Source: Bacteroidota bacterium (GTDB lineage: Bacteria > Bacteroidota > Bacteroidia > 2-12-FULL-35-15). Taken from it: a stretch of DNA of 64,000 nucleotides. Of the stretch, positions 30,882 through 64,000 are shown one piece after another (position 1 is the stretch's first letter; every line of letters begins with the position of its first letter). A program made the position numbers and the translations under genes. The stretch is from the NCBI GenBank assembly GCA_040389865.1, contig JAZJZM010000019.1:17423-81422 (forward strand), in the 5' to 3' direction. The notes below the pieces were generated by a model, which saw only the letters and a program-made list of their open reading frames with translations, had not been told where the DNA came from and searched no databases.

Positions 30882-31715
30882 TTAAGGATGAACTACAAAA
30901 ATTGGATATGTTGCTATTGCGCTTATTGTTGCTAATAATGGTTGTTTTCGAAAAAACCTTTCAAGAATATTTCTATGCCGTTCTTCCATCACTACCAGAT
31001 CTGTTTGGTTTTCGAGAATAAAATCATCAAGTGAGTCATCAATGTTGTCGGTGAAATTTATATCAACATTGTATTTTATTTTTCCATCTAATGATTTTTT
31101 TATTTCTTCTTTTATTCCGATGAATGCTTTTTGGCTCTTTTCATTATCTTCCTTGGTTAAAAACAAAAATGTAATTTGGGCCTCAAAAAAATTTGCAAAT
31201 TCATAAAACTGTTCCAGTGCGATACTATCTATCTTGTCAACTATAATTGGATAAAATATGTTTTTATACTTTTCAAACAAAAGGTCTTCCGGAACTATTA
31301 AAAGTGGACATTCTGACTCCTTGCTTGCTTTATATGTATTTGTGCCAAAAAAAAATTGTTTCAGATTATCCGGGCCATTAGTACCCATAACAATCATTGT
31401 GTTTTTCGTCACCGCTGATGCGATAGTTTTCGACAGGGATTTTGTAGTTATATCAACTTCATATGTTGTTGGGATATTATACATCTTGTTAATTTCAACA
31501 CTCATTTGTTTTAACTTATTCGAAACCTTGAGAGAGTTGTTTCGGATGTTACTGCCAACTCCCTCACCAAGACTTACCGCAGTTTCAAAATGAATTTGCT
31601 GTACATTAAATAATATCAGTTCTGCATTGATAACTTGAGCAAGCATTGCCGCGTATTCCGAAGCGTTGTTTGCTGAATCTGTAAAGTCAATAGGACAAAT
31701 AATTGTTGTTTTCAT
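30882..31715 (-). CDS. Universal stress protein, tandem UspA domains
   Basis: 'MKTTIICPIDFTDSANNASEYAAMLA..' and a second half 'KNIFYPIIVDKIDSIALEQF...LVVMEE' give two Usp-like alpha/beta units. Confidence 0.8.
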   Translation of the reverse strand: MKTTIICPIDFTDSANNASEYAAMLAQVINAELILFNVQQIHFETAVSLGEGVGSNIRNNSLKVSNKLKQMSVEINKMYNIPTTYEVDITTKSLSKTIASAVTKNTMIVMGTNGPDNLKQFFFGTNTYKASKESECPLLIVPEDLLFEKYKNIFYPIIVDKIDSIALEQFYEFANFFEAQITFLFLTKEDNEKSQKAFIGIKEEIKKSLDGKIKYNVDINFTDNIDDSLDDFILENQTDLVVMEERHRNILERFFRKQPLLATISAIATYPIFVVHP

Positions 31716-31733
31716 AAATAAGGAACATATTTA

Positions 31734-31894
31734 AGAGCCTGTTTAAATTTTATATAAAAGAATAACAATATTGCTTGTTGGAGCCATCCAATTCTCGACT
31801 CCGCTCGAAATGACCATGTGCGCTGGTATTTCGAGCGGAGTCGAGAAATCGTGTGAAGGCTGGAAACTGTTTGAATAAAATTTAAACAGGCTCT
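31734..31894. mobile_element. MITE-like element copy A (161 bp) with 20-bp terminal inverted repeats and a central 22-bp-stem hairpin
   Basis: The TIRs are 'agagcctgtttaaattttat' (31734-31753) and its reverse complement 'ataaaatttaaacaggctct' (31875-31894). The central 'aattctcgactccgctcgaaat'-gaccatgtgcgctggt-'atttcgagcggagtcgagaaat' is a perfect inverted repeat. Confidence 0.7.
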
Positions 31895-31928
31895 AAAAGG
31901 CTGAAAAATTATTGGCGTTTCTTATTCT

Positions 31929-32597
31929 TTAATAGACAAATACTTCTGTATCAATTTCAAGTTTGTTTTCAACAAGACCAATTCCTGGCGCTGACCAAGC
32001 TGCACGTGCTGCATCTCTTTTTTCAGCCCAAGAACGAACTTTTCCTGTTAGAATAACTTTGTTCCCAATTGTTTCTATGTTGATTTTTTCTGCATCAATT
32101 GTTGCGCTCCTGTGGAATGCAGAAACGATCTTTGTTTTTATTTCTCTTGCAGTGACCTGTGGTGTTACTTTTATATTATTACTTATTCCACGAACCCCCA
32201 ATAAATATTGTACTGCGCTGCTTGCTGCGTTTTTTTGAAATTCCCAATCGGTTTCTCCTTCTAGTGTTAACCACCCGTCTTCTACCTTTAATTTTATTTT
32301 TTCTTGTTGAACTGCGCTATGCCATTTTAGAGCGCTAATTGCGGCTTCGGCTATTTCTGTATCACTCTTTTTTCCATGCCCGGCTAATTTCACTTCAATA
32401 TCCACAGCAACTGCTTTTACTCCGGTAACTCTTTTGGTCGCTTTTTCTGCGGTTAGTTTTTTGGAATATGTATCTACTAGTCCAGAAAGGGTTACGACTC
32501 CGTTTTTTACTGCTACTCCAATTTCTGTAGCTTTCATTAATGGTTCCCATTTAAGTTCGTCCATAACATCTTTTTGAATTTCTGAATCTGTTCTCAT
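31929..32597 (-). CDS. BON-domain protein (two BON domains; OsmY-like)
   Basis: '[19 protein letters not shown]' is a typical family start. The BON units are '[36 protein letters not shown]' and '[41 protein letters not shown]'. The ORF is open upstream to 32654. Confidence 0.75.
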
Positions 32598-32785
32598 ACT
32601 TTTTTGTTTTTTTAATAATAAATATTTAAATAATTTTATGCAAAGTAAACTCATTATTGAAATCTATTCAATGATGAATTACAAAAAATGGAATGATCCA
32701 CATCACGAGTTTATTTTTTTTAATTGAAAATTTTATTTGATTCATGATACGGTAAATTTTCAGAAAAAAAAGGTTTAGGACTTTT

Positions 32786-33169
32786 TTACATCCATTTAGA
32801 AAGGAATTGAGCTAATTCTTTTCTTAGGCCATTGAAAATTTTTTCGAACCCTTCCACGCTATTTCTTTGCATTGAATGGTCCAAAAACTTTTTACTTTCA
32901 TTTGCAACCGCTTTTTTATTTACTTTTTCTTCGAGTGATCTTTCATGGCTGTTAATTTCATGTTTTAAGATATCTAGCTGTTCGTTTTGAGCGATTAGCT
33001 GGTTTTGAAAATGTTCAACAAAGGCGCGTACTTCTTTTGACGTATTTTTTTTTGCAATTTCTGAAATTCTATTTTGCATGATCTGAATTTCGTCTTTATA
33101 AAAAACTAATTTGCTTAGCCACGTTTTGTGATCCTCGTGCAACTGGTAAATATTTTTTGTAGTTTCCAT
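32786..33169 (-). CDS. Hypothetical coiled-coil protein (127 aa)
   Basis: Intact ORF co-oriented with the flanking Usp and BON genes; no domain recognised. Confidence 0.45.
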   Translation of the reverse strand: METTKNIYQLHEDHKTWLSKLVFYKDEIQIMQNRISEIAKKNTSKEVRAFVEHFQNQLIAQNEQLDILKHEINSHERSLEEKVNKKAVANESKKFLDHSMQRNSVEGFEKIFNGLRKELAQFLSKWM

Positions 33170-33273
33170 GTTTTATTTATTTAGTTAATAGTGTGTTGAT
33201 CTTCCATTTTAAAAGCCTATGGTAAATTATTGTAAAAGGGTTATTTGGTTTCAATCATTAAAGGAGTGTTTTT

Positions 33274-33657
33274 TTAATAATTGTTTTCACTGATTTTCCC
33301 GCTGAGTGCTTCACCTTGCCGGTTTTGTTCTTCAAGTGTCCAACAATCAGTTACTGTTGTTTCGAGCCAAACTCGCCATGAGTTCCTGTACACCTTAACT
33401 GATATGCCATATTCGCTGTTGAAACATTGCTCAAGATGGGATACAGTCATTTGTGGTGTAATAATTATACATGTTTTTTCTTCATTCGCACCGTACTTAG
33501 CTATTGTTTTAACAGTAGATTTTACCAGTTTATGCGGAGATAATGATGTAGTTGTGAGTTTTGTTAAAAAAAAATCGATTTTCAAAAAGGGAAACATCTT
33601 TGTAAATTCTTCTTGTATTTCAAATAATGTACTATTGTCGTCAACTGTTATTTTCAT
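33274..33657 (-). CDS. Hypothetical protein (127 aa)
   Basis: Intact ORF co-oriented in the stress island; an ORF on the opposite strand (33281-33685) overlaps it and is judged less likely. Confidence 0.4.
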   Translation of the reverse strand: MKITVDDNSTLFEIQEEFTKMFPFLKIDFFLTKLTTTSLSPHKLVKSTVKTIAKYGANEEKTCIIITPQMTVSHLEQCFNSEYGISVKVYRNSWRVWLETTVTDCWTLEEQNRQGEALSGKISENNY

Positions 33658-33711
33658 TTTAATATGTTGTATTTCATTGTTCTAAAGCGTCAAATTATTT
33701 TTTTGTGAGTT

Positions 33712-34533
33712 TTATTCTGGTAAAGCAAGTAATGGAATGTGAGTATGGAATGCCATACGCTTTGTATTCCTTTCCTGGAAAATATTTTCGAATAATGTGT
33801 GTTTGCGAGGTATCATTACAATTAGATCAGCGTTGTGTTCCTTTACAAATTCATTTATCCCTTCTACTATATCTTCATTCTCCACAAAGTCGAATGAATG
33901 ATTTAAACCTTCAAATGAATGGACCAGTTGTGTTCCACCAACTGTTTTTTTTATCGGTGAAATTAATTCTCCTTCACTTGAAACATTCAAGATATATAAT
34001 TGAGAATTGAAAAGTTTAATGAATTCTTTTATAGGCTCCATGGATCTGGCATCCATATTTTGATAGTCACAAGCTAATACAATTTTTCTGAGATTCTTAA
34101 ATACCACCTTATCGTTAATGGCAAGAACAGGGCGTTTTGCTTTCCGAATTAAAGTGGTGGTAACGCTGCCAATTAATTTTTCGCTCAAATAACCTGCCCC
34201 ACGAACCCCCATTACAATTAGATCAATTTTTTCTTCTTCTACTATTTCATTTATTTCATCAACGGCAAAACCAAGTGTAGTTTTACACTCAATGTTCAAT
34301 TCACTTCCGTGCTTAAATCGTATATTTTCCTTTATTTTGGTTAATACTTTTAAATTGTCTTTTTCTATTTCATCTAAAGGCATTATAAAAGGAACATCTG
34401 ACGGAACGGTAGGTATATGAAATACATGAAATAAAAGAAGTTTCGATTTGGTAAGCTTTGCTAATTCAGCTGCGTAATTTATTGCATTGTTTGCGCTGTC
34501 TGAAAAATCTGTGGGGGCGAGAATTGTTTTCAT
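33712..34533 (-). CDS. Universal stress protein, tandem UspA domains
   Basis: 'MKTILAPTDFSDSANNAINYAAELA...' and a second Usp unit '...LIVMGVRG..'. It is a paralog of the 30882-31715 gene. Confidence 0.8.
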   Translation of the reverse strand: MKTILAPTDFSDSANNAINYAAELAKLTKSKLLLFHVFHIPTVPSDVPFIMPLDEIEKDNLKVLTKIKENIRFKHGSELNIECKTTLGFAVDEINEIVEEEKIDLIVMGVRGAGYLSEKLIGSVTTTLIRKAKRPVLAINDKVVFKNLRKIVLACDYQNMDARSMEPIKEFIKLFNSQLYILNVSSEGELISPIKKTVGGTQLVHSFEGLNHSFDFVENEDIVEGINEFVKEHNADLIVMIPRKHTLFENIFQERNTKRMAFHTHIPLLALPE

Positions 34534-35822: not shown

Positions 35823-36314
35823 ATGGAAAAGAAAGGGATAAACCTATTTATTGTTGACGACAATAGATTAATGGTTTCAACACTTAAACAATATTTGCAA
35901 AATCGGTTTGGAGCCATTATGCAAATTTCAATTTTTAATAATGGTGAAAGCTGTTTGGAAAAAGTTGATTCTGATACTCAGATAGTGATATTGGATTATT
36001 ACATGAATGGCAAAAATGGTTTAGATATTTTGAAGTTAATAAAAGCCATTAACCCTAAAACAGAAGTTATCATGTTGTCCAATAATGAGGATATTGGACT
36101 TGCAATTGAAACATTCAGAGCAGGCGCCAAAGATTATGTGATAAAAGGTCAGGGTTCATGGAAAAAAATTACCCGTCTGGTAAATCTCATTATTACAGAG
36201 CCTATTCGAATTATGGTTAGGGAGTTTGGCGTATCAAAATTTACCGTCATATTTCTCATGACATTTGTAACTATGGGGCTTGCGGTGTTTTGTGTATTAT
36301 ATTTGATGAAATAA
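35823..36314 (+). CDS. Response-regulator receiver domain protein with a C-terminal transmembrane helix
   Basis: REC motifs 'INLFIVDDN', 'ILDYYMNGKNGLDILKLIK' and 'KDYVIKG'. The C-terminal 'FTVIFLMTFVTMGLAVFCVLYLM' is hydrophobic. Confidence 0.75.
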   Translation: MEKKGINLFIVDDNRLMVSTLKQYLQNRFGAIMQISIFNNGESCLEKVDSDTQIVILDYYMNGKNGLDILKLIKAINPKTEVIMLSNNEDIGLAIETFRAGAKDYVIKGQGSWKKITRLVNLIITEPIRIMVREFGVSKFTVIFLMTFVTMGLAVFCVLYLMK

Positions 36315-36687
36315 TAAAAAACAATAATTTTTTTTGATCGGATACACCGTATCATTTGCAAAAAAACAGAAACAGAACTAGTTTTTTTTCGTTTATCCAA
36401 TGTGTATTGATAAATATACCGCCATCAAAATTTATAGGTTCGGAGTCGGCATATTTTTAGAGAAATAGCAGTATCTCGATAAAAATCGTTAAGTTTAGCG
36501 GAAAGGAGCTGATTTTATTCATTCCTGTCAATATTATGGCTTGTTTTATTGTCTGCCAAAAAACACAAAAATGTGTGAATTATGTAACTTTTTGTAAAAG
36601 TTGTGTAACAAATACAATTTTAATTTTAATCACCTTTGTTAATATTGTTTTAAAACAAACAAGATTTTGAAATTATACATCAAATAC

Positions 36688-37248
36688 ATGGTAAGCGCCC
36701 GCTGTAAAATGGCGGTAAAAGAAGAGTTGAAGAAACTTGGATTGCATTTCACTCCCGTTGATTTAGGTGAGGTGGAGATCATGGAAAATATCACTTCGGA
36801 ACAGCGTGAACAGCTCAAAATTGCTTTACACGAGTCCGGACTTGAATTGATGGATGATAAGAGAGCTGTGTTGATCGAAAAAATAAAAAATGTAATTATT
36901 GAAATGGTTCATCATTCTGATGAAATGATCAAAATGAATTTTTCAGATTTTTTAAGTGAAAAATTAAGTCATGATTATACCTATCTGGCAAATTTGTTTT
37001 CTGAAGTTCAGGGTACTACAATTGAGCAATTTATCATCTCTCATAAAATTGAAAGGATAAAAGAATTGATGATCTATGGTGAACTTAACATTACGGAAAT
37101 TGCCTGGAAAATGAATTATAGTAGCGTTGCCCATTTATCCAACCAATTTAAAAAAGTTACTGGGCTTTCTCCTTCGCATTTTAAACAATTGAAGGATAAA
37201 AGACGCAGTCCGATTGAAGATATCGGAAATTCAAGCGAAATAAATTAA
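36688..37248 (+). CDS. AraC-family transcriptional regulator (small Bacteroidota type)
   Basis: C-terminal AraC HTH 'ITEIAWKMNYSSVAHLSNQFKKVTGLSPSHFKQ'. ATG 36688 ('MVSARCKMAV') is a family-typical start; the ORF track begins at TTG 36667. Confidence 0.75.
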   Translation: MVSARCKMAVKEELKKLGLHFTPVDLGEVEIMENITSEQREQLKIALHESGLELMDDKRAVLIEKIKNVIIEMVHHSDEMIKMNFSDFLSEKLSHDYTYLANLFSEVQGTTIEQFIISHKIERIKELMIYGELNITEIAWKMNYSSVAHLSNQFKKVTGLSPSHFKQLKDKRRSPIEDIGNSSEIN

Positions 37249-37271: not shown

Positions 37272-40200
37272 ATGGCAAAGAGAAAAAAATCGGAGGAATT
37301 AATTATTGCCAACAAGGAACTTATCTTTCAAAATGAAGAGAAGGAAAAGCGGGCAGAAGAGTTAATTATTGCAAATATCGAACTTGCTTTTCAAGATGAA
37401 GAAAAAGAAAAACGTGCTGCGGAGTTAATTTTAGCTAACATAGAGTTAGCTTTTCAGGATGTGGAGAAAGAAAAAAGAGCGGCTGAATTAATTATTGCTA
37501 ACAAGGAACTTGTATTTCAAAACGCAGAGAAAGAAAAACGTGCGGCCGAGTTGATCATTGCTAATAAAGAACTTGTTTTTCAAAATGATGAGAAAGAAAA
37601 ACGGGCTGAGGAATTGATCGTTGCTAATAAAGAACTTGTTTTTCAGAATGATGAAAAAGAAAAACGTGCTGCGGAGTTGATCATTGCAAACAAAGAACTT
37701 GTTTTTCAAAACGATGAGAAAGAAAAACGTGCCGCTGAGCTGATCGTAGCTAACAAAGAACTTGCTTTTCAAAACGAAGAGAAAGAAAAACGTGCAGCCG
37801 AGTTAATTGTTGCTAATAAAGAACTTGTTTTTCAGAATGATGAAAAAGAAAAACGAGCTGCGGAGTTGATCATTGCAAACAAAGAACTTGTTTTTCAAAA
37901 CGATGAGAAAGAAAAACGTGCCGCTGAGCTGATCGTAGCTAACAAAGAACTTGCTTTTCAAAACGAAGAGAAAGAAAAACGTGCAGCCGAGTTAATTGTT
38001 GCTAACAAAGAACTTGCTTTTCAAAATGACGAGAAAGAAAAACGAGCGGCTGAGTTGCTCATCGCTAATAAAGAACTGATCTTTCAAAACGATGAGAAAG
38101 AAAAACGAGCGGCAGAGCTAATTGTAGCGAACAAAGAACTTGCTTTTCAAAATGATGAAAAAGAAAAACGTGCAGCCGAGTTATTCATAGCTAATAAAGA
38201 ACTTGTATTTCAAACCGGGGAAAAAGAAAAACGTGCCGCGGAGTTGGTAATAGCCGACATAGAGCTTGTTTTTCAAAATAAAGAAAAAGAAAAGCGCGAA
38301 ATCGCAAATAAAGAACTTGAAGCATTAAGTTATTCCGCAAAATTAGCATCTCAATATTCTCTTAGCCTGATTGAAGCAAGTCGGGATCCCTTAGTTACTA
38401 TCAGTACAGAAGGCAAGATCACTGATATGAATCAGGCAACTGTAAATATAACAGGCTTGACTCGTGAAAAACTTACGGGTACCGATTTTTTTGATTATTT
38501 CACCGAACCACAAAAGGCACGTGAAGTATATCAGGAAGTATTTGCGAAAGGATCTGTTGCCGATTCTCCGCTTACTCTTCGTCATAAAGCAGGGAAACTT
38601 ACTGATGTATTGTTCAATGGCTCGGTTTATAAAGATGATCAGGGAAATGTACTGGGAGTGGTGATCGTGGCGAGAGATGTTACTGCCCAAAAATTACTTT
38701 CTAAATATTCGTTAAGTCTTATTGAGGCAAGTCTTGATCCATTGGTTACGATAAGTACTGAAGGTAAGATCACGGATATGAATGAGGCCACTGCAAATAT
38801 TACCGGTATGAGCCGTGACCAATTAACGGGTACCGATTTTTTTGATTATTTCACCGAACCACAAAAGGCTCGTGAAGTTTATCTGGACGTGTTTGCGAAA
38901 GGTTCTGTTGCCGATTCTCCACTTACACTTCGTCATAAGGATGGGAAGCTTACGGATGTATTATTCAACGGATCGGTTTATAAAGACGACAGAGGGAATG
39001 TGCTTGGTGCCGTTGTGGTAGCAAGAGATATTACTGAACAAAAAAGAATAGCAACTGAATTGACTGAAGCGAAAATATTTGCCGAGTTGGCAACAGGTAT
39101 TGCGGAGGAAGCAAAAGCTAAAGCCGAAAGTGCCACACGAATAGCCGAAGATGCCGTGAAAGCGAAGCAACAATTTTTGTCAAACATGAGTCACGAAATT
39201 CGTACACCAATGAATGCGATCATTGGATTTACGAAAGTAGTATTAAAAACAGAGCTGTCGGTAAAACAAAAGGAATATTTGTCGGCCATAAAAATGAGTG
39301 GTGATGCATTGATCGTGCTCATTAACGATATACTCGATCTTGCTAAGGTAGATGCAGGAAAAATGTCCTTTGAGAAAACACCTTTCAAAATGAAAGCATC
39401 CATAGCATCCATGCTTCATTTGTTTGAGACAAAAATTCAGGAAAAGAATTTACAGCTTGTTAAGGAATACGACAATAAAATTCCTGATGTGTTAGTTGGC
39501 GATCCGGTTCGTTTACACCAGATCATATTAAATTTGGTGAGTAACGCTGTAAAGTTTACAACTTATGGAAAAATTACTGTAAGTGTTCATTTAGTGAGTG
39601 AGGACGAAGAAAAAGCAACCATTGAATTTGCAGTTATGGATACCGGGATTGGAATAGCGGAAAATAAAATAGAAAGAATCTTCGAAAACTTTCAGCAGGC
39701 AACCAGCGGCACTTCAAGATTATTTGGTGGAACAGGATTAGGACTTGCAATTGTTAAACAATTGGTAGAACCGCAAGGGGGAAGTCTTTTTGTAACAAGT
39801 AAAATTGATGAGGGTTCTACTTTTAGTTTTACGTTAACTTTTCAAAAAACAAAAGCGGAAGCCGAATTGGTAACTGAAGTTGCGGAATTGGATTCCGAAA
39901 TAAAAAATATAAAAGTATTGGTGGTGGAAGATATTGCACTCAATCAATTACTAATGAAAACATTGTTGGATGATTTCGGATTTGAACGCGATATTGCTGC
40001 AAATGGACAAATAGCCATCGAAAAATTGCAAGCTAAATCTTATGATATTATTTTGATGGACTTGCAAATGCCTGTAATGAATGGCTTTGAAGCTACCGAA
40101 TATATTCGTAATAAAATGAATTCTAAGATCCCGATCATCGCCTTAACTGCCGATGTAACTACAGTGGATCTGGCAAAATGCAAAGCGGTTGGCATGAATG

Positions 40201-40676
40201 ATTATATTGCAAAGCCTGTTGATGAAAGAGTATTATATAGTAAAATAGTGGGCCTGGTAAAAAAGCCTGTATTTGTTAATATCCAAAAGGAAAAAGAAAA
40301 CATTGAAACTGAGAAGTTAAAATGTATTGACCTGAAATATTTAAACCACCGCACAAAATCAAATCCAACAATAATGATGGAAATGATTTCACTTTATTTG
40401 GAGCAAACTCCACCTTTGATCAGCACAATGAAACAAAGTTTGTTGGATCAGGATTGGAATTCATTGCGCGCTGCAGTACATAAAATGATTCCCTCCTTTT
40501 CAATAATGGGCATTCATATAGATTTTGAAAATATGGCGAAAAAAGTTCAGGAGTATTCAAGTATCCAGGAACGAACGCATGAGATACATGACTTAGTGAT
40601 ACAGCTTGAAGATGTTTGTTTACAGGCATGTAAAGAGTTGGAAGAAGAATTTAATACGATTAAAAATAAGAAATAA
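37272..40676 (+). CDS. Hybrid sensor histidine kinase: 16 x 21-aa coiled-coil repeats, 2 PAS, HisKA, HATPase_c, REC, HPt
   Basis: Repeats 'ELIIANKELVFQNDEKEKRAA' x16. PAS blocks 'LIEASRDPLVTIS.EGKITDMN.AT.NITG'. H-box 'SHEIRTPMNAIIGF'. G2 box 'GGTGLGLAIVKQLVE'. REC 'ILMDLQMPVMNGFEAT'. HPt 'AVHKMIPSFSIMG'. Confidence 0.9.
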   Translation: MAKRKKSEELIIANKELIFQNEEKEKRAEELIIANIELAFQDEEKEKRAAELILANIELAFQDVEKEKRAAELIIANKELVFQNAEKEKRAAELIIANKELVFQNDEKEKRAEELIVANKELVFQNDEKEKRAAELIIANKELVFQNDEKEKRAAELIVANKELAFQNEEKEKRAAELIVANKELVFQNDEKEKRAAELIIANKELVFQNDEKEKRAAELIVANKELAFQNEEKEKRAAELIVANKELAFQNDEKEKRAAELLIANKELIFQNDEKEKRAAELIVANKELAFQNDEKEKRAAELFIANKELVFQTGEKEKRAAELVIADIELVFQNKEKEKREIANKELEALSYSAKLASQYSLSLIEASRDPLVTISTEGKITDMNQATVNITGLTREKLTGTDFFDYFTEPQKAREVYQEVFAKGSVADSPLTLRHKAGKLTDVLFNGSVYKDDQGNVLGVVIVARDVTAQKLLSKYSLSLIEASLDPLVTISTEGKITDMNEATANITGMSRDQLTGTDFFDYFTEPQKAREVYLDVFAKGSVADSPLTLRHKDGKLTDVLFNGSVYKDDRGNVLGAVVVARDITEQKRIATELTEAKIFAELATGIAEEAKAKAESATRIAEDAVKAKQQFLSNMSHEIRTPMNAIIGFTKVVLKTELSVKQKEYLSAIKMSGDALIVLINDILDLAKVDAGKMSFEKTPFKMKASIASMLHLFETKIQEKNLQLVKEYDNKIPDVLVGDPVRLHQIILNLVSNAVKFTTYGKITVSVHLVSEDEEKATIEFAVMDTGIGIAENKIERIFENFQQATSGTSRLFGGTGLGLAIVKQLVEPQGGSLFVTSKIDEGSTFSFTLTFQKTKAEAELVTEVAELDSEIKNIKVLVVEDIALNQLLMKTLLDDFGFERDIAANGQIAIEKLQAKSYDIILMDLQMPVMNGFEATEYIRNKMNSKIPIIALTADVTTVDLAKCKAVGMNDYIAKPVDERVLYSKIVGLVKKPVFVNIQKEKENIETEKLKCIDLKYLNHRTKSNPTIMMEMISLYLEQTPPLISTMKQSLLDQDWNSLRAAVHKMIPSFSIMGIHIDFENMAKKVQEYSSIQERTHEIHDLVIQLEDVCLQACKELEEEFNTIKNKK
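37296..38304 (+). repeat. 63-bp tandem repeat array (16 units) encoding a 21-aa (three-heptad) coiled-coil repeat
   Basis: Several units are identical over more than 120 bp, e.g. 37650-37780 and 37840-37970. Confidence 0.9.
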
Positions 40677-41110
40677 TGAAAAACGAAAGCAAAATAAAAC
40701 TTTTCCTCGTAGATGACGATGCATTGTTTTTAAAATCCTTGGAAATTGAGTTTCTGGAACACGCGGATTTTACAATTGAAACATATTCAACAGGTGAACT
40801 TTGCCTTAAAAATATATCTCACAGCCCTGATGTGATCATTTTAGATTATCACCTTGATGGCATCGATAAAAATGCGATGAATGGAATGGAAACATTGGAT
40901 AAAATAAAAGCTTCCCATCCTGATATTCCTGTAATAATGCTATCTTCTCAGGATAAAATTGATGTTGCCATAAACTGTATGCATCACAGAGCCTTTGATT
41001 ATGTGGTGAAAAGCGAAACCGCTTTCATGCGTCTGCAAAAGATCATCACAACTATTTTCCGTTATAAAAAAATGGAAAAAGAATTAAGTTGGTATATGGA
41101 TAGGATGTAA
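40676..41110 (+). CDS. Single-domain response regulator (REC)
   Basis: 'KLFLVDDDALFL', 'ILDYHLDG..MNGMETLDKIK' and 'FDYVVKS'. The ATG overlaps the kinase stop (TAATG), implying translational coupling. Confidence 0.85.
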   Translation: MKNESKIKLFLVDDDALFLKSLEIEFLEHADFTIETYSTGELCLKNISHSPDVIILDYHLDGIDKNAMNGMETLDKIKASHPDIPVIMLSSQDKIDVAINCMHHRAFDYVVKSETAFMRLQKIITTIFRYKKMEKELSWYMDRM

Positions 41111-41433: not shown

Positions 41434-44400
41434 ATGAGATCGATCGCTACCACTAAAAAGAAGAAATCACCAACCAAAAAAAATGTTGAAGATCATTCTT
41501 TTCCTATCGTGGCTATTGGCGCTTCATTAGGTGGTTTAGAAGCGCTTACCTCTTTATTGAAAAATTTACCTTCCAATACCGGAATGGCATATATTTATGT
41601 GCAACACTTAAGCCCTGACCATAAAAGTTTACTAACTTCTATAGTATCCAAGATAACTAAAATGAAAGTTCAGGAGATAGAGGATATGGCGCACATGGCT
41701 CCGGATAATGTGTATGTGATCCCCTATAATAAAATAATTAAAGTTACTGACGGACACATTAAATTGCTTCCCCGTCCAAAAAGCAGTTCTGCCATTTCCA
41801 TTGATGTTCTGTTCTCGTCACTTGCTAAAACGCATAAAAAGAATGTTATTGGTGTGATCCTTTCTGGCAGCGGCACTGATGGTACAAACGGATTAAAAGC
41901 GATCAAAAAAGCGGGAGGAATGACAATTGCACAAGATGATTCCGCGCAAGCAAACAGTATGCCCAACTCGGCTATTGCCTCTAATGTTGTTGATTTTATT
42001 TTATCTCCTAAAGAAATTGCCGGGCATTTAGCAACATTTAGCAAAAATGATTTTTTGAAACCTGACCTTGAAAGTAAACAGAAAGAAGAAGTTAGTGAAA
42101 ATAGTAATCATGATCTGAAAACTATTTTCGGAATTTTATTTAAAAAAACCGGTGTGGACTTCAATCATTATAAGATGTCCACCATTAAAAGGCGATTGAA
42201 CAATAAAATGCTTCAATGCGGAGTAAAAACAGTAAAGGAATATGTAAAATTATTGCTCAAAAAAAACAGTGAGGTTGATCTTCTTTACAAGGATCTGCTT
42301 ATTAACGTAACTAGTTTTTATAGAGATAAGGACGCATTTCAGTATTTAAAAACAACCTTGTTTCCAAAGCTTCTTGAGGGTAAAGCACCGGGAGAAGTAA
42401 TTCGGATATGGATTCCAGCCTGCTCTACCGGTCAGGAAGCTTATTCCATTGCCATGATGCTGACTGAGCTGCAGGAAAATAAAAAAAAGAAAATACCTTT
42501 CCAGATCTTTGGTACCGATCTTAGCGATCAGGCAATTAGTGCTGCACGCAAAGCCGAATATTCGGCAAGTGATCTTATTCCTATTTCAAAGAAATTCAAA
42601 GATCGTTACTTTACTAAAACGGGTGACAACTACCGTATTGTTAAAGAGCTTCGCGAATTGTGTGTATTTGCTCCTCATAATATTCTGCGCGATCCACCTT
42701 TTTCACGTATGGATTTTATCAGTTGTCGCAATCTTCTTATTTATTTTGATTCTTCTGCACAGAAACGGGTTTTTTCAATCCTGCATTTTGCTTTGAATAA
42801 CCAGGGGAGTTTAATGCTTGGTCAAGCAGAAACGGTAGGCACGTCTTCTCAGCTTTTTATCACTACAAATGCTAAATTTAAGATTTACTCTCGTAAAAAG
42901 AGTACCGGAGTGAGGAAGATACTTGAATTAACACCACATTTTCCGCGTACAAATTTTTATAGTAAAAAAATAAACACACCTGTTAAAAGTTTGAGCGTAA
43001 ATTTAATGGGTGTTGAGAATGCTATTGATTCTGCTATTCTCTCAAAGTACATGCCTGCGTGTGCAGTTATAAACAAGGACATGGAAATTCTCCAGTTCAG
43101 AGGACCGATCTCTTTATTTCTCGCACATCCTTCCGGCAAAGCAAGTCTAAATATTTTAAAAATGACAAGACCTGAATTTGCCTTTGAACTTCGTAATGCA
43201 ATTCAAAAAGTAATAAAAACAAAACAGTCGGTGCAAAAAGCGGGCATCGAAATTAAGGTCGAGTCTGTTTTTCGTATGATGTCTTTGGAAGTTTCTCTTC
43301 TTAAGATTGATTGGGACGAGCCATTGCTACTTATTGTTTTTACATTACAGGAACAGGTTGAAAAATTTATTGAAATTGGTAATAGCGGGAAAAGCAATTC
43401 GATCCATGATGCCCAAAGAATAGTAAAGCTGACCGAGGAGTTGAACAATACCCGGATGGAAATAAATTCCATTATCGAATCGCAAGAAGCTACTTTCGAG
43501 GAATTACAAGCAGCCAATGAAGAAATTGTTTCAAGTAATGAAGAGTTTCAAACCTTAAATGAAGAACTTGAAACATCGAAAGAAGAAATTGAGACTACCA
43601 ATGAAGAGCTAATTTCTATCAATCAGGAATTACAAATGCGTAATGATCTTTTAACAGAATCGCATGAGTATTCGGAGGCCATCATTGCTACCATCCATGA
43701 GCCTATGCTTGTGCTAAACAAGGACTTTATTATACAATCCGCCAATAAATCGTATTATAAAAAATTTCTTGTTAAAAAAGAAGAAACGGAAAAGAAATTG
43801 TTTTTTGAATTAGGAAATAAGCAATGGAATATTCCAAAACTTCGTGAGGTGTTAAATGATATTCTTACCAAAAACAAGAGTTTTGAAAATTTTGAAGTGA
43901 CACATGCATTCCCGGGAATAGGCGAAAAAATAATGTTGCTTAATGCACATCTTGTCCTTCAAAAAGAGAACAGAGAACAACTAATTCTGCTTGCCATTGC
44001 TGATGTTTCCGAGTTAAGGAGATTGAGTATAGAGCTCAAAGTGAAAGACGCTAAAGTATTAAAAAACGAAGAGAAAGGGAAATGGGCGGCAGAGTTAGTT
44101 ATTGCCAACAAAGAACTTGCCTTTCAAAATGAGGAGAAAGAAAAACGAGCAGAGGAGTTGATCATTGCCAATAAAGAACTTGTTTTCCAGAACAATGAAA
44201 AAGAAAAACGTGCTGCGGAGTTGGTCATTGCAAACAAAGAACTTGCTTTTCAAAATGATGAAAAAGAAAAACGTGCTGCCGAGTTAGTAATTGCAAACAA
44301 AGAGCTTGCATTTCAAAACGAAGTGAAAGAAAAACGAGCTGCTGAGTTGGTTATTGCAAACAAAGAACTTGCTTTTCAAAATGATGAGAAGGAGAAACGT

Positions 44401-46944
44401 GCAGCCGAGTTAGTTATTGCAAACAAAGAACTTTTATTTCAGGCAGGCGAGAAAGAAAAACGAGCAGCCGAGTTAGCCATTGCAAAAATAGAACTTGACT
44501 TTCAAAATAAAGAGAAAGAAAAACGGGAAATTGTAAATAAAGAACTTGAAGCGTTCAGTAATGCAACTAAATTAGCATCTCAATATTCTCGAAGTTTGAT
44601 CGAAGCAAGTTTAGATCCGCTTGTTACTATCAGTGCAGAAGGAAAGATATTGGATGTAAATAATGCATCGATAAAAGTGACGGGTGTTCCACGTGATAAA
44701 CTCATTGGCACTGATTTCTCCCGTTATTTTACAGAACCATTAAAAGCACAAGAAGGCTATAAGCAGGTTTTTGAAAAAGGATCTGTGTCGGATTATCCTT
44801 TAACAATAAAACATAAAAATGGAAACTTAACGGATGTATTGTACAATGCATCTGTTTATAAAGATGAGAAAGGTAATGTTCTTGGAGTTTTTGCTGCTGC
44901 ACGTGATATAACCGAACAAAAAAGAATTGAAGTTGATCTGGGTAAAAGTTTAAAGGAAATTTCGGATTACAAATATGCACTTGATGAATTTTCTATTGTT
45001 GCCATCACAGACCAGAAGGGAATTATCAAACATGCAAATGACAACTTTTGCAAAGTTTCAAAATTCACGAGAGAGGAATTAATAGGCGCGGATCATCGCA
45101 TTATTAATTCCGGCCATCATCCGAAAGAATTTATCAATGATTTATGGACAACAATTGCCAATGGCGGGATTTGGAGAGGTGAATTAAAAAATGCGGCAAA
45201 GGATGGAACTATTTATTGGGTGAATACTACTATTGTTCCTTTCCTGAATGAACAAGGAAAACCTTACCAGTATGTTGCAGTAAGAACGGACATTACCGAT
45301 CAAAAAAGAATAGAAACAGAATTGATAGAAGCAAAAGTGTTTGCTGAGTTGGCAACCGGTATTGCAGAAGAAGCCCAGAGCAAGGCGGAAAGCGCTACAT
45401 TAATAGCTGAAGATGCGGTGAAAGCGAAACAGCAGTTTTTATCAAACATGAGTCATGAAATCCGCACACCAATGAATGCGATCATTGGATTTACCAAAGT
45501 GGTATTGAAAACAGATCTAACGACAAAACAAAAGGAATATCTTTCAGCGATAAAAATGAGTGGTGATGCATTGATCGTACTTATAAACGATATCCTTGAT
45601 TTGGCAAAGGTAGATGCAGGCAAAATGACATTTGAGAAAACACCTTTCAAAATGGAGTCTTCCATTTCAGCGATGCTCCATTTGTTTGAGACAAAAATTC
45701 AGGAAAAGAATTTGGAATTAGTTAAAAAATACGATAGTAATATTCCTCAAGTGTTAATAGGTGACCCGGTTCGCCTGCATCAGATCATTTTAAATTTGGT
45801 GAGTAATGCAGTGAAATTTACAACAAAAGGGAAAATTACTGTTAGTGTTCTTCTATTAACTGAAGATGAAAATAATGCAAGCCTGGAATTTGCGGTTTCG
45901 GATACCGGAATAGGCATAGATGGAAACAAAATAGAACATATTTTTGAAAATTTTCAGCAAGCTTCAAGCAGCACTTCAAGGTTGTTTGGTGGGACAGGTT
46001 TAGGCTTGGCCATTGTAAAACAATTGGTAGAACCTCAGGGAGGTAGCATTAGGGTGAAAAGTAAAATTGGTGAAGGTTCTACTTTTAGTTTTATATTAAA
46101 TTTTCAAAAAACAAAGGCTGAAGCAGAATTAGAAACAGAAATGCTGGAGTTGGATACTGAGATCAAAAACATAAAAGTATTAGTGGTTGAAGATATTCCA
46201 CTTAATCAACTATTGATGAAAACACTATTGGATGATTTTGGATTTGAACGTGATATCGCTTCAAATGGAAAAATTGCCATCGAAAAGCTGCAAACTAAAT
46301 CGTATGATATTATTTTGATGGATCTGCAGATGCCTGAAATGAATGGATTTGAAGCAACAGAATACATTCGTAATAAAATGAATTCTAAGATCCCTATTAT
46401 GGCTTTAACGGCCGATGTGACCACCGTTGATCTGGAAAAGTGCAGAGCCGTTGGGATGAACGATTACATTGCAAAACCCGTTGATGAAAAATTATTGTAC
46501 AGTAAAATAATTAGTTTAGTAAAAAAGCGAATGCCTTTAAAAACGAAGGAATCTATTGGAAATGAAAATAATTTCAATGAAAAATTAAAATGCACTGACC
46601 TGAAATATTTAATAAAACGCACAAAAAATAGTCCGAAATTAATGATGGAAATGATCTCACTTTATTTGGAACAAACTCCACCTTTAATCAACTCAATGAA
46701 AAAAAGCGTGCAGGATAAAGATTGGGATTCGCTATACGCAGCAGTGCATAAAATGATACCATCCTTTTCAATAATGGGTATGAGTATTGATATTGAAAAT
46801 ACAGCAAAAAGAGTTCAGGAATACGCAGGTACAAAACAACGAACTGAAGAAATTTCAGGCTTGGTTTTACATCTCGAAAAAGTTTGTGCACAAGCATGTA
46901 AAGAATTGGAACTGGACTATACGAATTTTAAAAATGCTGGCTAG
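41434..46944 (+). CDS. CheB methylesterase - CheR methyltransferase fusion to a PAS/hybrid histidine kinase (1,836 aa)
   Basis: CheB motifs 'IVAIGASLGGLEAL' and 'ILSGSGTDGTNGLKAIKKAGGMTIAQD'. CheR SAM-site motif 'IRIWIPACSTGQEAYSIAMML'. An 'EEL(Q/E)(S/T).NEEL' heptad linker. 7 x 21-aa repeats. 3 PAS. H-box 'SHEIRTPMNAIIGF'. HATPase_c, REC, HPt. Confidence 0.9.
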   Translation: MRSIATTKKKKSPTKKNVEDHSFPIVAIGASLGGLEALTSLLKNLPSNTGMAYIYVQHLSPDHKSLLTSIVSKITKMKVQEIEDMAHMAPDNVYVIPYNKIIKVTDGHIKLLPRPKSSSAISIDVLFSSLAKTHKKNVIGVILSGSGTDGTNGLKAIKKAGGMTIAQDDSAQANSMPNSAIASNVVDFILSPKEIAGHLATFSKNDFLKPDLESKQKEEVSENSNHDLKTIFGILFKKTGVDFNHYKMSTIKRRLNNKMLQCGVKTVKEYVKLLLKKNSEVDLLYKDLLINVTSFYRDKDAFQYLKTTLFPKLLEGKAPGEVIRIWIPACSTGQEAYSIAMMLTELQENKKKKIPFQIFGTDLSDQAISAARKAEYSASDLIPISKKFKDRYFTKTGDNYRIVKELRELCVFAPHNILRDPPFSRMDFISCRNLLIYFDSSAQKRVFSILHFALNNQGSLMLGQAETVGTSSQLFITTNAKFKIYSRKKSTGVRKILELTPHFPRTNFYSKKINTPVKSLSVNLMGVENAIDSAILSKYMPACAVINKDMEILQFRGPISLFLAHPSGKASLNILKMTRPEFAFELRNAIQKVIKTKQSVQKAGIEIKVESVFRMMSLEVSLLKIDWDEPLLLIVFTLQEQVEKFIEIGNSGKSNSIHDAQRIVKLTEELNNTRMEINSIIESQEATFEELQAANEEIVSSNEEFQTLNEELETSKEEIETTNEELISINQELQMRNDLLTESHEYSEAIIATIHEPMLVLNKDFIIQSANKSYYKKFLVKKEETEKKLFFELGNKQWNIPKLREVLNDILTKNKSFENFEVTHAFPGIGEKIMLLNAHLVLQKENREQLILLAIADVSELRRLSIELKVKDAKVLKNEEKGKWAAELVIANKELAFQNEEKEKRAEELIIANKELVFQNNEKEKRAAELVIANKELAFQNDEKEKRAAELVIANKELAFQNEVKEKRAAELVIANKELAFQNDEKEKRAAELVIANKELLFQAGEKEKRAAELAIAKIELDFQNKEKEKREIVNKELEAFSNATKLASQYSRSLIEASLDPLVTISAEGKILDVNNASIKVTGVPRDKLIGTDFSRYFTEPLKAQEGYKQVFEKGSVSDYPLTIKHKNGNLTDVLYNASVYKDEKGNVLGVFAAARDITEQKRIEVDLGKSLKEISDYKYALDEFSIVAITDQKGIIKHANDNFCKVSKFTREELIGADHRIINSGHHPKEFINDLWTTIANGGIWRGELKNAAKDGTIYWVNTTIVPFLNEQGKPYQYVAVRTDITDQKRIETELIEAKVFAELATGIAEEAQSKAESATLIAEDAVKAKQQFLSNMSHEIRTPMNAIIGFTKVVLKTDLTTKQKEYLSAIKMSGDALIVLINDILDLAKVDAGKMTFEKTPFKMESSISAMLHLFETKIQEKNLELVKKYDSNIPQVLIGDPVRLHQIILNLVSNAVKFTTKGKITVSVLLLTEDENNASLEFAVSDTGIGIDGNKIEHIFENFQQASSSTSRLFGGTGLGLAIVKQLVEPQGGSIRVKSKIGEGSTFSFILNFQKTKAEAELETEMLELDTEIKNIKVLVVEDIPLNQLLMKTLLDDFGFERDIASNGKIAIEKLQTKSYDIILMDLQMPEMNGFEATEYIRNKMNSKIPIMALTADVTTVDLEKCRAVGMNDYIAKPVDEKLLYSKIISLVKKRMPLKTKESIGNENNFNEKLKCTDLKYLIKRTKNSPKLMMEMISLYLEQTPPLINSMKKSVQDKDWDSLYAAVHKMIPSFSIMGMSIDIENTAKRVQEYAGTKQRTEEISGLVLHLEKVCAQACKELELDYTNFKNAG
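44087..44535 (+). repeat. 63-bp tandem repeat array (7 units); paralogous to 37296-38304
   Basis: 'AELVIANKELAFQNEEKEKRA' units. The nucleotide sequence is near-identical to the repeat units of the first kinase. Confidence 0.9.
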
Positions 46945-61653: not shown

Positions 61654-64000
61654 ATGAACTGCAGTCCAATCAAATATATATATACTCAAATTCCATTCAA
61701 TAGAAGTTTTGTTAAGCAACAAAAGCAAACGCTGCGTTTTTTAACAAATGCAATTTGTTTATTTTTTATTGTTATTTTATTTCAACAAAAAGCAATTGGA
61801 CAAAACCTTGGTATTAATACTACAGGCGCATTACCTGATTCATCGGCTATGCTCGATATCATAAGCCCTAATAAAGGATTGCTTATTCCAAGAATTAGTT
61901 TAACATCTACTACAGACGCTACTACTATTGCAAACCCCGCTATTTCATTGTTAGTGTATAATAACAATGTTTCTATGATCGGTGGAGGCTTAGGTTTTTG
62001 GTATTGGAATGGAACACAATGGGTACAGGCAATTGGCCCTGTGGGGGCTACTGGTTCAACAGGAGCAACGGGAGCTGACGGAATATTTGGAACAACTGGT
62101 GAAACGGGTACTGCTGGCTCAAATGGAAGTACAGGTTCAACAGGTGTAACTGGTGCTGAAGGAATAATAGGAGCAACCGGAGAGACAGGTTCTGCTGGAA
62201 CAAATGGAGCTATAGGTTCAACTGGTGCAACTTCAAATACAGGTGCAACAGGCAGTACAGGTTCAACAGGTTCTACGTCTAATACAGGTTCAACAGGTAG
62301 TACAGGCTCTACAGGTTCAACATCTAACACAGGTTCAACTGGAGCAACAGGAAGTAGTTCAACAGGTGCGACTGGTTCAACTGGTTTCACATCAAACACA
62401 GGTTCAACAGGAATTACCGGCTCAACCGGTTCCACTTCAAATACAGGAGCAACAGGAAGCACTGGCTCAACTGGTTCAACCGGGAGGACTGGCTCAACCG
62501 GTTCAACAGCTAACACAGGGTCTACGGGAGAAACTGGGACAACAGGTGCGACCGGCTCAACCGGTTCTACCTCAAATACAGGGTCAACAGGAAGCACAGG
62601 ATCAACTGGTTCAACATCTAATACTGGTTCAACAGGAAGCACAGGTTCAACATCAAATACCGGATCGACTGGGGCTACAGGTTCAACCGGTTCTACGTCC
62701 AATACGGGGGCAACAGGAAGCACAGGATCAACCGGTTCCACTTCAAATACAGGAACAACAGGAAGTACCGGTTCGACTGGTTCAACAGCTAACACTGGTT
62801 CAACAGGAGCAACGAGTTCAACAGGAAAGACAGGATCAACGGGCTCAACCGGTTCTACTTCAAATACAGGAACCACTGGCTCTACTGGTTCTACATCTAA
62901 TACCGGTTCCACGGGCGCGACAGGTTCAACAGGGACTACGTCAAATACGGGTTCAACAGGAAGTACAGGTTCAACTGGCTCGACATCAAATACAGGAGCA
63001 ACTGGGACAACAGGTGCGACCGGCTTAACCGGTTCAACAGCCAACACCGGTTCAACCGGTTCTACTTCAAATACAGGTGCAACAGGAAGTACAGGTTCAA
63101 CAGCTAACACAGGTTCAACGGGATCAACTGGTTCCACTTCAAATACAGGATCAACTGGAAGTACCGGCTCAACAGGAGCAACTGGAGCAACCGGTTCTAC
63201 TGGTGCTACTTCAAATACAGGTTCGACCGGAAGAACCGGTTCAACAGCTAGCACGGGTTCCACTGGCGCAACAGGTTCTACAGGGACAACAGGAAGTACC
63301 GGTTCAACTGGTTCAACAGCTAACACAGGGTATACAGGAGCAACTGGGACAACAGGTGCGACCGGTTCTACCTCAAATACAGGAACAACAGGAAGTACCG
63401 GCTCGACTGGTTCAACAGCTAACACAGGTTCTACCGGTGCGACCGGCTCAACAGGTTCAACAGCTAACACCGGTTCATCGGGATCAACGGGTTCCACTTC
63501 AAATACGGGATCAACAGGAAGTACTGGCTCTACCGGTTCTACAGGAGCAACTGGTTCTACTGGTGCTACTGGAACTACTTCAAATACAGGTGCAACAGGA
63601 AGTACCGGCTCGACTGGTTCAACAGCTAACACTGGTTCAACTGGAGCAACGAGTTCTACAGGTTCAACAGGAAGGACAGGGTCAACTGGTTCAACGGGTT
63701 CTACTTCAAATACAGGAACCACTGGAAATACCGGTTCCACAGGCTCAACCGGTTCTACATCTAATACAGGTTCAACAGGTGCGACCTCTAATACCGGTTC
63801 AACGGGAGCAACTGGAAGTAGTTCTACTGGTGCTACCGGTTCAACTGGCTCGACATCAAATACAGGTGCAACAGGAAGCACAGGCTCAACGGGTTCGACC
63901 TCTAATACCGGTTCAACGGGAGCAACTGGAAGTAGTTCTACTGGTGCTACCGGTTCAACTGGCTCGACATCAAATACAGGTGCAACAGGAAGCACAGGCT
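61654..64000 (+). CDS. Second giant collagen-like fibre protein, 5' part (paralog of 1629-13307); it runs off the window
   Basis: ATG 61654 follows a TAA at 61636-38. The N-terminal module '[68 protein letters not shown]' is about 60% identical to the first gene's module. It is followed by G-X-T triplets with regular 'STSNTG'/'STANTG' Gly-to-Ser interruptions. The six-frame track omitted it because there is no stop inside the window. Confidence 0.85.

Follow-up and report, generated by a model that had tools for sequence, protein, structure and literature searches.

A Glutamate-Rich Helix Linked to CheB and CheR as the Candidate Methyl-Accepting Segment of a CheB/CheR-Fusion Hybrid Histidine Kinase from a Bacteroidota Bacterium

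Reversible glutamate methylation by CheR, a methyltransferase, and CheB, a methylesterase, is the textbook form of sensory adaptation, and to our knowledge it is known only on chemoreceptors, the methyl-accepting chemotaxis proteins (MCPs), inside MCP-CheA-CheW arrays. In the enteric CheR, Arg53 is essential for receptor methylation, and the alpha2 face recognises the acidic methylation helix. High-abundance chemoreceptors of E. coli tether both CheR and CheB through an NWETF pentapeptide (reviewed in PMC7390727), and the Wsp, Frz, and CheR-TPR systems are described as chemosensory pathways with alternative functions (PMC3447774). The gene examined here, at positions 41434-46944 of the forward strand, lies in a stretch of 64,000 nucleotides from a Bacteroidota bacterium (assembly GCA_040389865.1, contig JAZJZM010000019.1, positions 17,423 to 81,422), hereafter referred to as the window. 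It is a single uninterrupted open reading frame (ORF) encoding a protein of 1836 amino acids (aa), the CheBR kinase, in which CheB, CheR, a PAS-like domain, a long helix, a PAS domain, seven 21-aa repeats, and two additional PAS domains precede a HisKA-HATPase-REC-HPt module. We propose, with a probability of roughly 55%, that the tethered CheR and CheB methylate and demethylate a ladder of glutamates on the long helix and thereby tune the linker between PAS and kinase, a proposal drawn from the obligate co-occurrence of this ladder with the two enzymes and from the pattern of its sites.

The tract in question (aa 689-737) reads EELQAAN EEIVSSN EEFQTLN EELETSK EEIETTN EELISIN QELQMRN, that is, seven heptads with the consensus N-E-E-L-Q-S-x. 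It was found, nearly letter-identical, in 120/120 close homologues. The forward test employed 150 representatives picked on aa 1-490 (CheB-CheR) alone, with 38-61% identity, among which all 131 sequences of at least 800 aa carried the tract; the 14 representatives lacking it were all of 722 aa or fewer, so that these sequences end before or where the tract would begin. The reverse test consisted of a scan of metagenome DNA with nothing but the back-translated ten-residue core of the tract, N-E-E-L-[EQ]-T-x-K-E-E, and yielded 120 loci. Upstream sequence of at least 2.2 kb was available for 77 loci, and every one of them encoded CheB and CheR there, in the same ORF or as frameshift pieces. The other 43 loci had less than 2.2 kb upstream, most of their ORFs left the contig end, and the upstream sequence available showed partial CheR or CheB together with CheR. 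Outliers in the reverse test were locus L176, which probably matched the pattern by chance, and L180, a possible CheR-only variant. Across 80 loci (about 1.4 Mb), the only other ORFs with at least four phased [EQ][EQ] heptads were two low-complexity matches. At the sequence level, the tract is obligately linked to CheB-CheR in both directions.

A search of a 5.8-billion-protein index with a 90-aa tract query was also tried as a reverse test and rejected. It returned only proteins of 158 aa or fewer, which provide no test of the link between the tract and CheB-CheR, and it was therefore replaced by the DNA-pattern scan. The locus of one of these proteins, P0144, was inspected (L001, ENA contig_7462, 4057-9170); there, CheB/CheR_N and CheR are split over separate ORFs directly ahead of the protein, PAS and kinase ORFs come behind it, and it is a frameshift fragment. 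The short tract-matching proteins P0121-P0162, for which this was the one locus inspected, are probably fragments of longer CheBR kinase genes, and counts of small 'CheB/CheR fusion proteins' are thus likely inflated. Separately, loci L031 (a Spirosoma metagenome-assembled genome, MAG), L041 (Candidatus Jettenia), and L180 (metagenome) showed CheR, the PAS-like domain, and the tract, with CheB apparently missing; if real, they would represent proteins in which methyl groups are written without a dedicated eraser in cis.

A heptad register profile built from 133 aligned representatives showed Asn at position a (Lys in one heptad) in 82-99% of sequences, Glu at b in 98-99%, Glu at c in 99-100%, Leu at d in 71-97% (Ile, Leu, or Val in the first central heptad, with 37% Ile), Gln or Glu at the less conserved e, Ser or Thr at f in 86-96%, and small or aliphatic, variable residues at g. 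The exposed b, c, and f columns match or exceed the helix core in conservation, with the exposed E-E pair and the following S/T at 86-100%, which is the opposite of the pattern expected from a purely structural coiled coil. Invariant surface residues can also mark an interaction surface, and the tract might accordingly be a conserved dimerisation or docking helix, either an Asn-at-a zipper or a partner surface, while CheB and CheR modify other Glu or Gln residues of their own protein or of a partner. Asn at nearly every a position together with Leu at d is a classic register-specifying feature of coiled coils, two PAS domains are connected by the helix, an arrangement shared with PpsR, FixL, and LOV kinases, and the strict MCP consensus is not matched (see below). 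However, no alternative conserved acidic segment travels with CheB-CheR, the half-sites of the tract and their heptad phasing mirror methylation helix 1 of Tar, and two glutamate-modifying enzymes tethered to 10-14 exposed glutamates are most simply understood as enzymes and their substrate. We therefore regard a purely docking or dimerising helix as unlikely.

The first-pass annotation of this DNA had described intact CheB and CheR domains fused in cis ahead of a PAS-kinase core, and alignment with solved structures upheld that description. The residues Ser31, His58, and Asp149 of CheB align with the Ser164/His190/Asp286 triad of the solved CheB 1A2O, and they are kept in 133, 134, and 135 of 135 aligned relatives, respectively, although these share just 32-55% overall identity. 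Pfam found no N-terminal receiver on CheB, whose catalytic domain begins at residue 26 and thus leaves no space for one; the sole REC domain of the whole protein lies near its C-terminus (aa 1582-1692). For CheR, Pfam scores were 44 bits (PF03705, CheR_N) and 179.1 bits (PF01739), and the motifs of the S-adenosylmethionine (SAM) region align with those of the solved CheR structures 5FTW, 5Y4R, and 1AF7. No variation was seen among the same 135 relatives at the motif residues G333, D362, and N433, and C330 and E335 each occur in 134; no catalytic residue of either enzyme proved degenerate. The counterpart of E. coli CheR Arg53 on the substrate-reading alpha2 face is R254, invariant in 135/135, and the remainder of this basic face is likewise conserved (R253 135/135, R257 129/135, R258 131/135). 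Both enzymes look active, and their conserved residues suggest that CheB and CheR have been selected to work and to read an acidic helix. That the two domains are catalytically dead relics serving only as scaffolds is hardly credible given such retention of the triad and of the CheR motif residues at this level of divergence.

When compared with the methylation sites of MCPs, the tract showed four in-phase matches to the half-site EExx[AST][AST] (aa 689, 696, 710, and 717), with E-E at heptad positions b/c, and the family consensus contains five such half-sites by reading. When the tract profile was compared with full-length E. coli Tar by hhalign, the best alignment covered Tar 280-311, in methylation helix 1, and set the second Glu of three heptads on Q295, E302, and Q309, but it was not significant. 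We considered whether the tract is homologous to MCP methylation helices and do not claim it, since this alignment is insignificant and no MCPsignal domain is present; the likeness to a methylation helix is taken as a functional one, and the tract is not placed in the MCP family.

Several points weigh against methylation of the ladder. The strict MCP consensus [ASTG][ASTG]xx[EQ][EQ]xx[ASTG][ASTG] has 0 matches in the CheBR kinase or in its upstream paralog, and as a control it picks exactly sites 295, 302, 309, and 491 in Tar. The hhalign alignment with Tar is statistically insignificant (P=0.064, probability 0.9%). Pfam found no MCPsignal domain in the whole protein at E<=0.01, nor in aa 490-1060 at E<=10. 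Gln almost never occupies the central E-E positions of the tract, which leaves the deamidase side of CheB without an obvious role there. The constancy of the exposed residues would fit a surface for protein-protein docking equally well, and the case for methylation of the tract consists of obligate co-occurrence and pattern, both of them properties of sequences. The representative sets are biased to the relatives that HMMER ranks highest. Finally, the chemosensory scan described next covers the window and locus flanks, so that MCPs may be encoded elsewhere in the source genome, and many hosts of the family, e.g., Leptospirales, Colwellia, and Microcoleus, presumably have MCPs.

This last point bears on another explanation, in which the CheB-CheR part of the fusion acts in trans on chemoreceptors encoded elsewhere, the protein being a sensor-regulated supplier of the enzymes and the EE tract only a structural linker. 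Both enzymes look canonical, including the basic recognition face of CheR, and the lineages just named presumably have chemoreceptors. The scan for chemosensory genes comprised 2.34 Mb, namely the window and 200 fetched loci (about 160 of them CheBR loci), and employed phmmer with E. coli Tar, Tap, CheW, and CheA as queries. No match to MCP, CheW, or CheA was detected in the 64-kb window, in agreement with the first reading of this DNA. An MCP and a CheW gene were found beside the fusion gene in L113 (metagenome contig Ga0265331_10001347), which served as the positive control and favours action in trans. Nevertheless, this was only 1 of about 160 loci near chemosensory genes, the family is especially abundant in Flavobacterium and other Bacteroidota, which usually lack MCP, CheA, and CheW, and a supply of enzymes in trans would leave the two-way obligatory tract and its near-invariant exposed residues unexplained. 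We consider it quite unlikely.

The first-pass annotation had placed the substrate elsewhere, suggesting that CheR and CheB modify glutamates in the 21-aa repeat stalk of the CheBR kinase or of the paralog that starts at 37272, and that these repeats resemble the Glu-Glu/Gln-Glu sites of MCPs followed by small residues. The repeat unit, AELvIANKELaFQNxEKEKRA (21 aa, 63 nucleotides), is present 7 times in the CheBR kinase and 16 times in the upstream paralog, and no Pfam model covers it. These repeats do exist, look helical, and are acidic; kinases bearing them frequently neighbour CheBR kinase genes in Bacteroidota loci, and in L005-L007 a stand-alone CheR/CheB pair adjoins a CHASE3-GAF kinase with 7 such repeats, all of which would fit a scheme in which repeat number sets the range of adaptation. 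In contrast, the repeats are missing from 114/120 close homologues and from 149/150 representatives picked on CheB-CheR only, while they are common in Bacteroidota kinases without CheB/CheR. Nor is the number of copies constant among nearly identical orthologues, with 7 vs. 8 for the CheBR kinase and 14 vs. 16 for the paralog. An E-E pair is present in 6/23 units of the window, the first position being D, E, G, K, or N, and it is followed by K-E-K-R and not by small residues; 0/23 units match the strict MCP consensus or the EExx[AST][AST] half-site. Methylation of the repeat stalk is thus very improbable, and, on the distribution and composition of the units, the array is most fittingly viewed as a lineage-specific spacer, confined to Bacteroidota, whose length varies and which is not coupled to CheB-CheR. 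We still favour the broader idea that the kinase is self-contained in its methylation-based adaptation, with the acceptor moved from the repeats to the Glu ladder.

As an observation in its own right, arrays of 2-16 copies of this repeat occur in many Bacteroidota kinases, including those of the window (44092-44532 and 37296-38303) and of loci L002, L003, L005-L007, L009, L012, L013, L015, L016, L020, L023, L037, L042, and L064, and the kinases bearing them often adjoin CheBR kinase genes. The stand-alone pair in Flavobacterium spp. (L005 1994-3393, also L006 and L007) is a second putative adaptation pair lacking a chemoreceptor and is composed of a CheR of 274 aa and a receiver-less CheB of 190 aa. 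It is flanked by a receiver gene on one side and by a CHASE3-GAF-HisKA-HATPase-REC x3 kinase on the other, and lies ~7 kb upstream of the gene for the CheBR kinase. The kinases adjoining this pair were examined as possible tract bearers and rejected, as they have neither the EE tract nor strict MCP sites.

The region between CheR and the 21-aa repeats was modelled with AlphaFold (aa 490-880, mean predicted local distance difference test score, pLDDT, of 76.7). Pfam recognised nothing in aa 490-660, and no sequence relative of the aa 490-880 region was found in the PDB. The model begins with a low-confidence linker, followed by a helix and a five-stranded sheet, one unbroken helix of 99 residues with a pLDDT of 91-97 over the tract, and a second PAS fold (coordinates in Table 1). 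The best Foldseek matches of the model were the tandem-PAS sensors FixL, DosP, PpsR, and LOV-PAS-HK. From AlphaFold and Foldseek, the domain before the helix is assigned as PAS-like, and it occupies the same position in all CheB-CheR loci; the linker that separates it from CheR, as modelled, may act as a flexible tether.

Taken together, we infer the following mechanism for methylation of the ladder, in which the dimeric coiled coil, methylation in cis or within the dimer, the effect of charge on signalling, and the analogy of the tether are all part of the inference. The kinase would dimerise, and its long helix, whose a positions carry Asn and whose d positions carry Leu, would form a parallel coiled coil that is marginally stable and sensitive to register, with 10-14 Glu per chain displayed at b and c, both exposed. 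Flexible linkers would hold CheR and CheB beside this helix, the covalent link taking the place of NWETF docking, and the two enzymes would add and remove methyl esters on the ladder glutamates, in cis or within the dimer. Neutralisation of charge would then change the stability or register of the helix and so reset the strength with which the PAS-like domain upstream of it acts on the PAS domains downstream and on the kinase. With no receiver on CheB, phosphorylation of that enzyme could not supply the feedback, which would have to arise from how good a substrate the helix is in each conformation. In this way, adaptation of the chemoreceptor kind, gain control, or memory would become available to a soluble two-component kinase that has no MCP, CheA, or CheW.

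The gene is an ordinary member of a catalogued, uncharacterised family, and its architecture is not new. With aa 1-880 as the query, 8,000 candidates were scored and 7,941 proteins passed E<=1e-10, a lower bound on the number of relatives; Flavobacterium and other Bacteroidota supply most of them. Many of them bear the JGI name 'two-component system CheB/CheR fusion protein' or the NCBI name 'CheR family methyltransferase', and the KEGG number of the cheBR CheB/CheR fusion protein is K13924. A HMMER search with aa 1-490 against 1.84 billion cluster representatives returned 10,755 at E<=1e-30, stand-alone CheB and CheR included. The nearest genome match, an uncultured Bacteroidota MAG (L016), exhibited 97% identity over aa 1-880, and the closest database members 62-73% over the same residues. 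The same domain order was found at full length in Cyanobacteria, Planctomycetota, Nitrospirota, Desulfobacterota, Leptospirales, Bdellovibrionota, a Colwellia, and a Methanobacterium. Loci L044-L080 were set aside, as they matched only aa ~714-880 through generic PAS similarity and had no CheB, CheR, or tract. These counts and the JGI names bear out the earlier remark that the architecture is databased as 'CheB/CheR fusion'. Its companion remark, that substrate and role are unestablished, agrees with a full-text literature search (most subscription journals being outside its coverage) that found no published substrate or role, no mechanistic work on CheB/CheR fusions, and no paper printing the tract motif; what the literature did contain were gene-count footnotes, KEGG-style gene lists, or cheB/cheR double mutants. 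What is new here is that a concrete candidate acceptor, the obligate helix with the Glu ladder, has been named and that the 21-aa repeats have been excluded.

Throughout the family, the invariant N-terminal unit has five parts: a receiver-less CheB, CheR, the PAS-like domain, the long helix with 5-9 N-E-E-L-Q-S-x heptads, and a PAS domain (PAS_10). The outputs attached to this unit were surveyed by a local phmmer screen and by a Pfam scan of the 42 representatives not matching the kinase type of the query. Among the representatives, HisKA kinases with or without REC and HPt were identified, and the 42 others comprised HisKA_3 (17), HWE_HK (3), HisKA_2 (2), HisKA (2), and SpoIIE phosphatase (2) outputs, with PAS_10 after the tract in 35/42. 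The occurrence of different kinases and phosphatases behind a constant CheB-CheR-PAS-like-ladder-PAS_10 module indicates that this module is the conserved unit and that the outputs are interchangeable. As a tentative generalisation, to which we give a little less than even credence, CheB/CheR fusions could constitute a widespread, MCP-independent device for methylation-based adaptation, working on a PAS-to-PAS ladder of 5-9 heptads in soluble kinases and occasionally phosphatases of many bacterial phyla and at least one archaeon. If so, ordinary two-component systems would gain an integral-feedback memory so far known only from chemoreceptor arrays, memory based on methylation would extend to two-component signalling in general, and engineering would have in the module a compact, portable adaptation unit. 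Database proteins in which the two enzymes are fused to sensor kinases number in the tens of thousands, many of them from organisms not known to swim by chemotaxis, and the question of their substrate is now narrowed to 10-14 Glu on a single helix, which across phyla does not part from the enzymes. Should the tract not be methylated, the family would still be without a substrate and the invariant helix would need another explanation.

Regarding the C-terminal half, the kinase H-box is SHEIRTP at aa 1340, with His1341. By its motifs, the CheBR kinase is a hybrid histidine kinase with phosphorelay parts, namely the H-box His, HATPase_c, the receiver Asp, and a probable HPt domain. The latter assignment draws on PF01627 recorded for the close homologues P0004 and P0005, on a weak Hpt match (E=0.003) at the equivalent position of the paralog, on ArcB and TorS model alignments that reach aa 1814-1815, and on the motif HKMIPS at aa 1772. 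NCBIfam showed a generic similarity to BarA/TorS/ArcB-like hybrid kinases, below every equivalog cutoff. The features of the gene and of its neighbours within the two-component cluster are collected in Table 1.

Table 1. Coordinates of the CheBR kinase, its domains, and neighbouring two-component genes (positions in the window).
Feature	Position	Strand	Basis
CheB/CheR-fusion hybrid sensor histidine kinase, whole gene	41434..46944	+	ORF, Pfam, NCBIfam
CheB methylesterase catalytic domain, aa 26-199	41509..42030	+	CheB_methylest PF01339, 180.9 bits (cutoff 24), profile 1-174 of 174
CheR methyltransferase: CheR_N aa 227-276 and SAM-binding domain aa 291-480	42112..42873	+	Pfam, alignments with solved CheR
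Probable flexible tether between CheR and PAS-like domain, aa 481-523	42874..43002	+	no Pfam match; AlphaFold pLDDT <50 at aa 490-521
PAS-like alpha/beta domain, aa 524-641	43003..43356	+	AlphaFold and Foldseek
Single continuous 99-residue helix joining two PAS domains, aa 655-753 (predicted)	43396..43692	+	AlphaFold
EE-heptad tract ('Glu ladder'), aa 689-737, proposed methyl-accepting segment	43498..43644	+	sequence reading, TRF 21-nucleotide periodicity
PAS domain after tract, aa 758-857	43705..44004	+	PAS_4 E=3.6e-5; AlphaFold PAS fold
Seven tandem 21-aa repeats, aa 887-1033	44092..44532	+	63-nucleotide period, 7.3 copies
Two more PAS domains, aa 1053-1161 and 1200-1283	44590..45282	+	PAS_9, PAS_4, PAS, PAS_3 matches (Pfam)
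Histidine kinase core: HisKA aa 1331-1396, HATPase_c aa 1443-1557	45424..46104	+	Pfam
Receiver domain, aa 1582-1692	46177..46509	+	PF00072 93.1 bits; LMDLQMP motif at aa 1628
Probable HPt domain, C-terminus, about aa 1735-1836	46636..46941	+	weak/indirect matches
Upstream paralogous hybrid kinase, 1134 aa, 16 x 21-aa repeats N-terminal, without CheB/CheR or EE tract	37272..40676	+	
Stand-alone receiver between the two kinases; start overlaps paralog stop	40676..41110	+	PF00072 66.8 bits
Stand-alone receiver	35823-36314	+	Pfam
AraC-type HTH protein	36667-37248	+	Pfam

Upstream, the paralogous kinase shares 80% protein and 79.5% DNA identity with aa 1290-1836 of the CheBR kinase (the C-terminal 547 residues; BLASTP alignment). 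It also contains, at 38349-39001, a 351-nucleotide tandem duplication (1.9 copies, 83% match) corresponding to a duplicated PAS domain (aa 366-470 and 490-589). By their adjacency, the more distant stand-alone receiver and the AraC-type protein are possible output partners. Just upstream of this two-component cluster, two universal stress proteins and a triple-BON-domain protein are encoded on the reverse strand (30882-34533), which might hint at a stress-related regulon, and the genes downstream of the CheBR kinase are unrelated. Elsewhere in the window, an ORF of 3,892 aa on the forward strand (1629-13307) matches the Collagen triple-helix repeat PF01391 in nine stretches (E=8e-208) and encodes an unusually large bacterial collagen-like protein; its GC content of 0.41-0.53, compared to about 0.33 in the rest of the window, is attributed to its Gly-X-Y codon content. 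At the 3' end of the window, a 737-aa ORF on the reverse strand (61782-63995) lies in a segment with a GC content of 0.50 and has no Pfam match, and a 267-aa ORF overlaps it on the other strand.

When compared to typical CheB/CheR fusions of Flavobacterium, the window protein shows the same order of CheB, CheR, PAS-like domain, EE tract, PAS, and kinase. Together with its nearest orthologues (L016, L013, L002, and L003), it is 300-450 aa longer than these because an array of 7-8 of the 21-aa repeats and an additional PAS domain have been inserted. The tandem-PAS proteins FixL, DosP, the Brucella LOV-PAS-HK, and PpsR with its Q-linker likewise have two PAS folds joined by a long signal-transmitting helix in a dimer, whereas they lack the 99-residue N-E-E-L-Q-S-x helix and attached modifying enzymes. 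The E. coli Tar/CheR/CheB system employs the same two enzymes, with the same conserved catalytic and substrate-reading residues, and the candidate acceptor of the fusion resembles Tar 294-313 in that Glu pairs, each with small residues after it, recur every heptad along a long helix. In contrast to that system, the fusion has no MCPsignal domain, CheA, CheW, or membrane segment, its CheB is without a receiver, its enzymes are fused to their putative substrate, and its heptad core is of Asn/Leu and not of the Ala/Leu-type packing of the MCP four-helix bundle. As with NWETF, the adaptation enzymes would be kept at a high local concentration beside methylation helices through a flexible tether, although a peptide bond and a low-confidence linker of roughly 40 residues would serve as the tether here in place of a docking motif. 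Wsp, Frz, and CheR-TPR resemble the fusion in that CheR-type methylation serves outputs besides flagellar rotation, but they use MCP, CheA, and CheW in che-type gene clusters, and the fusion does not. Relative to these characterised systems, the CheB/CheR fusion family would be a new form of methylation-based adaptation.

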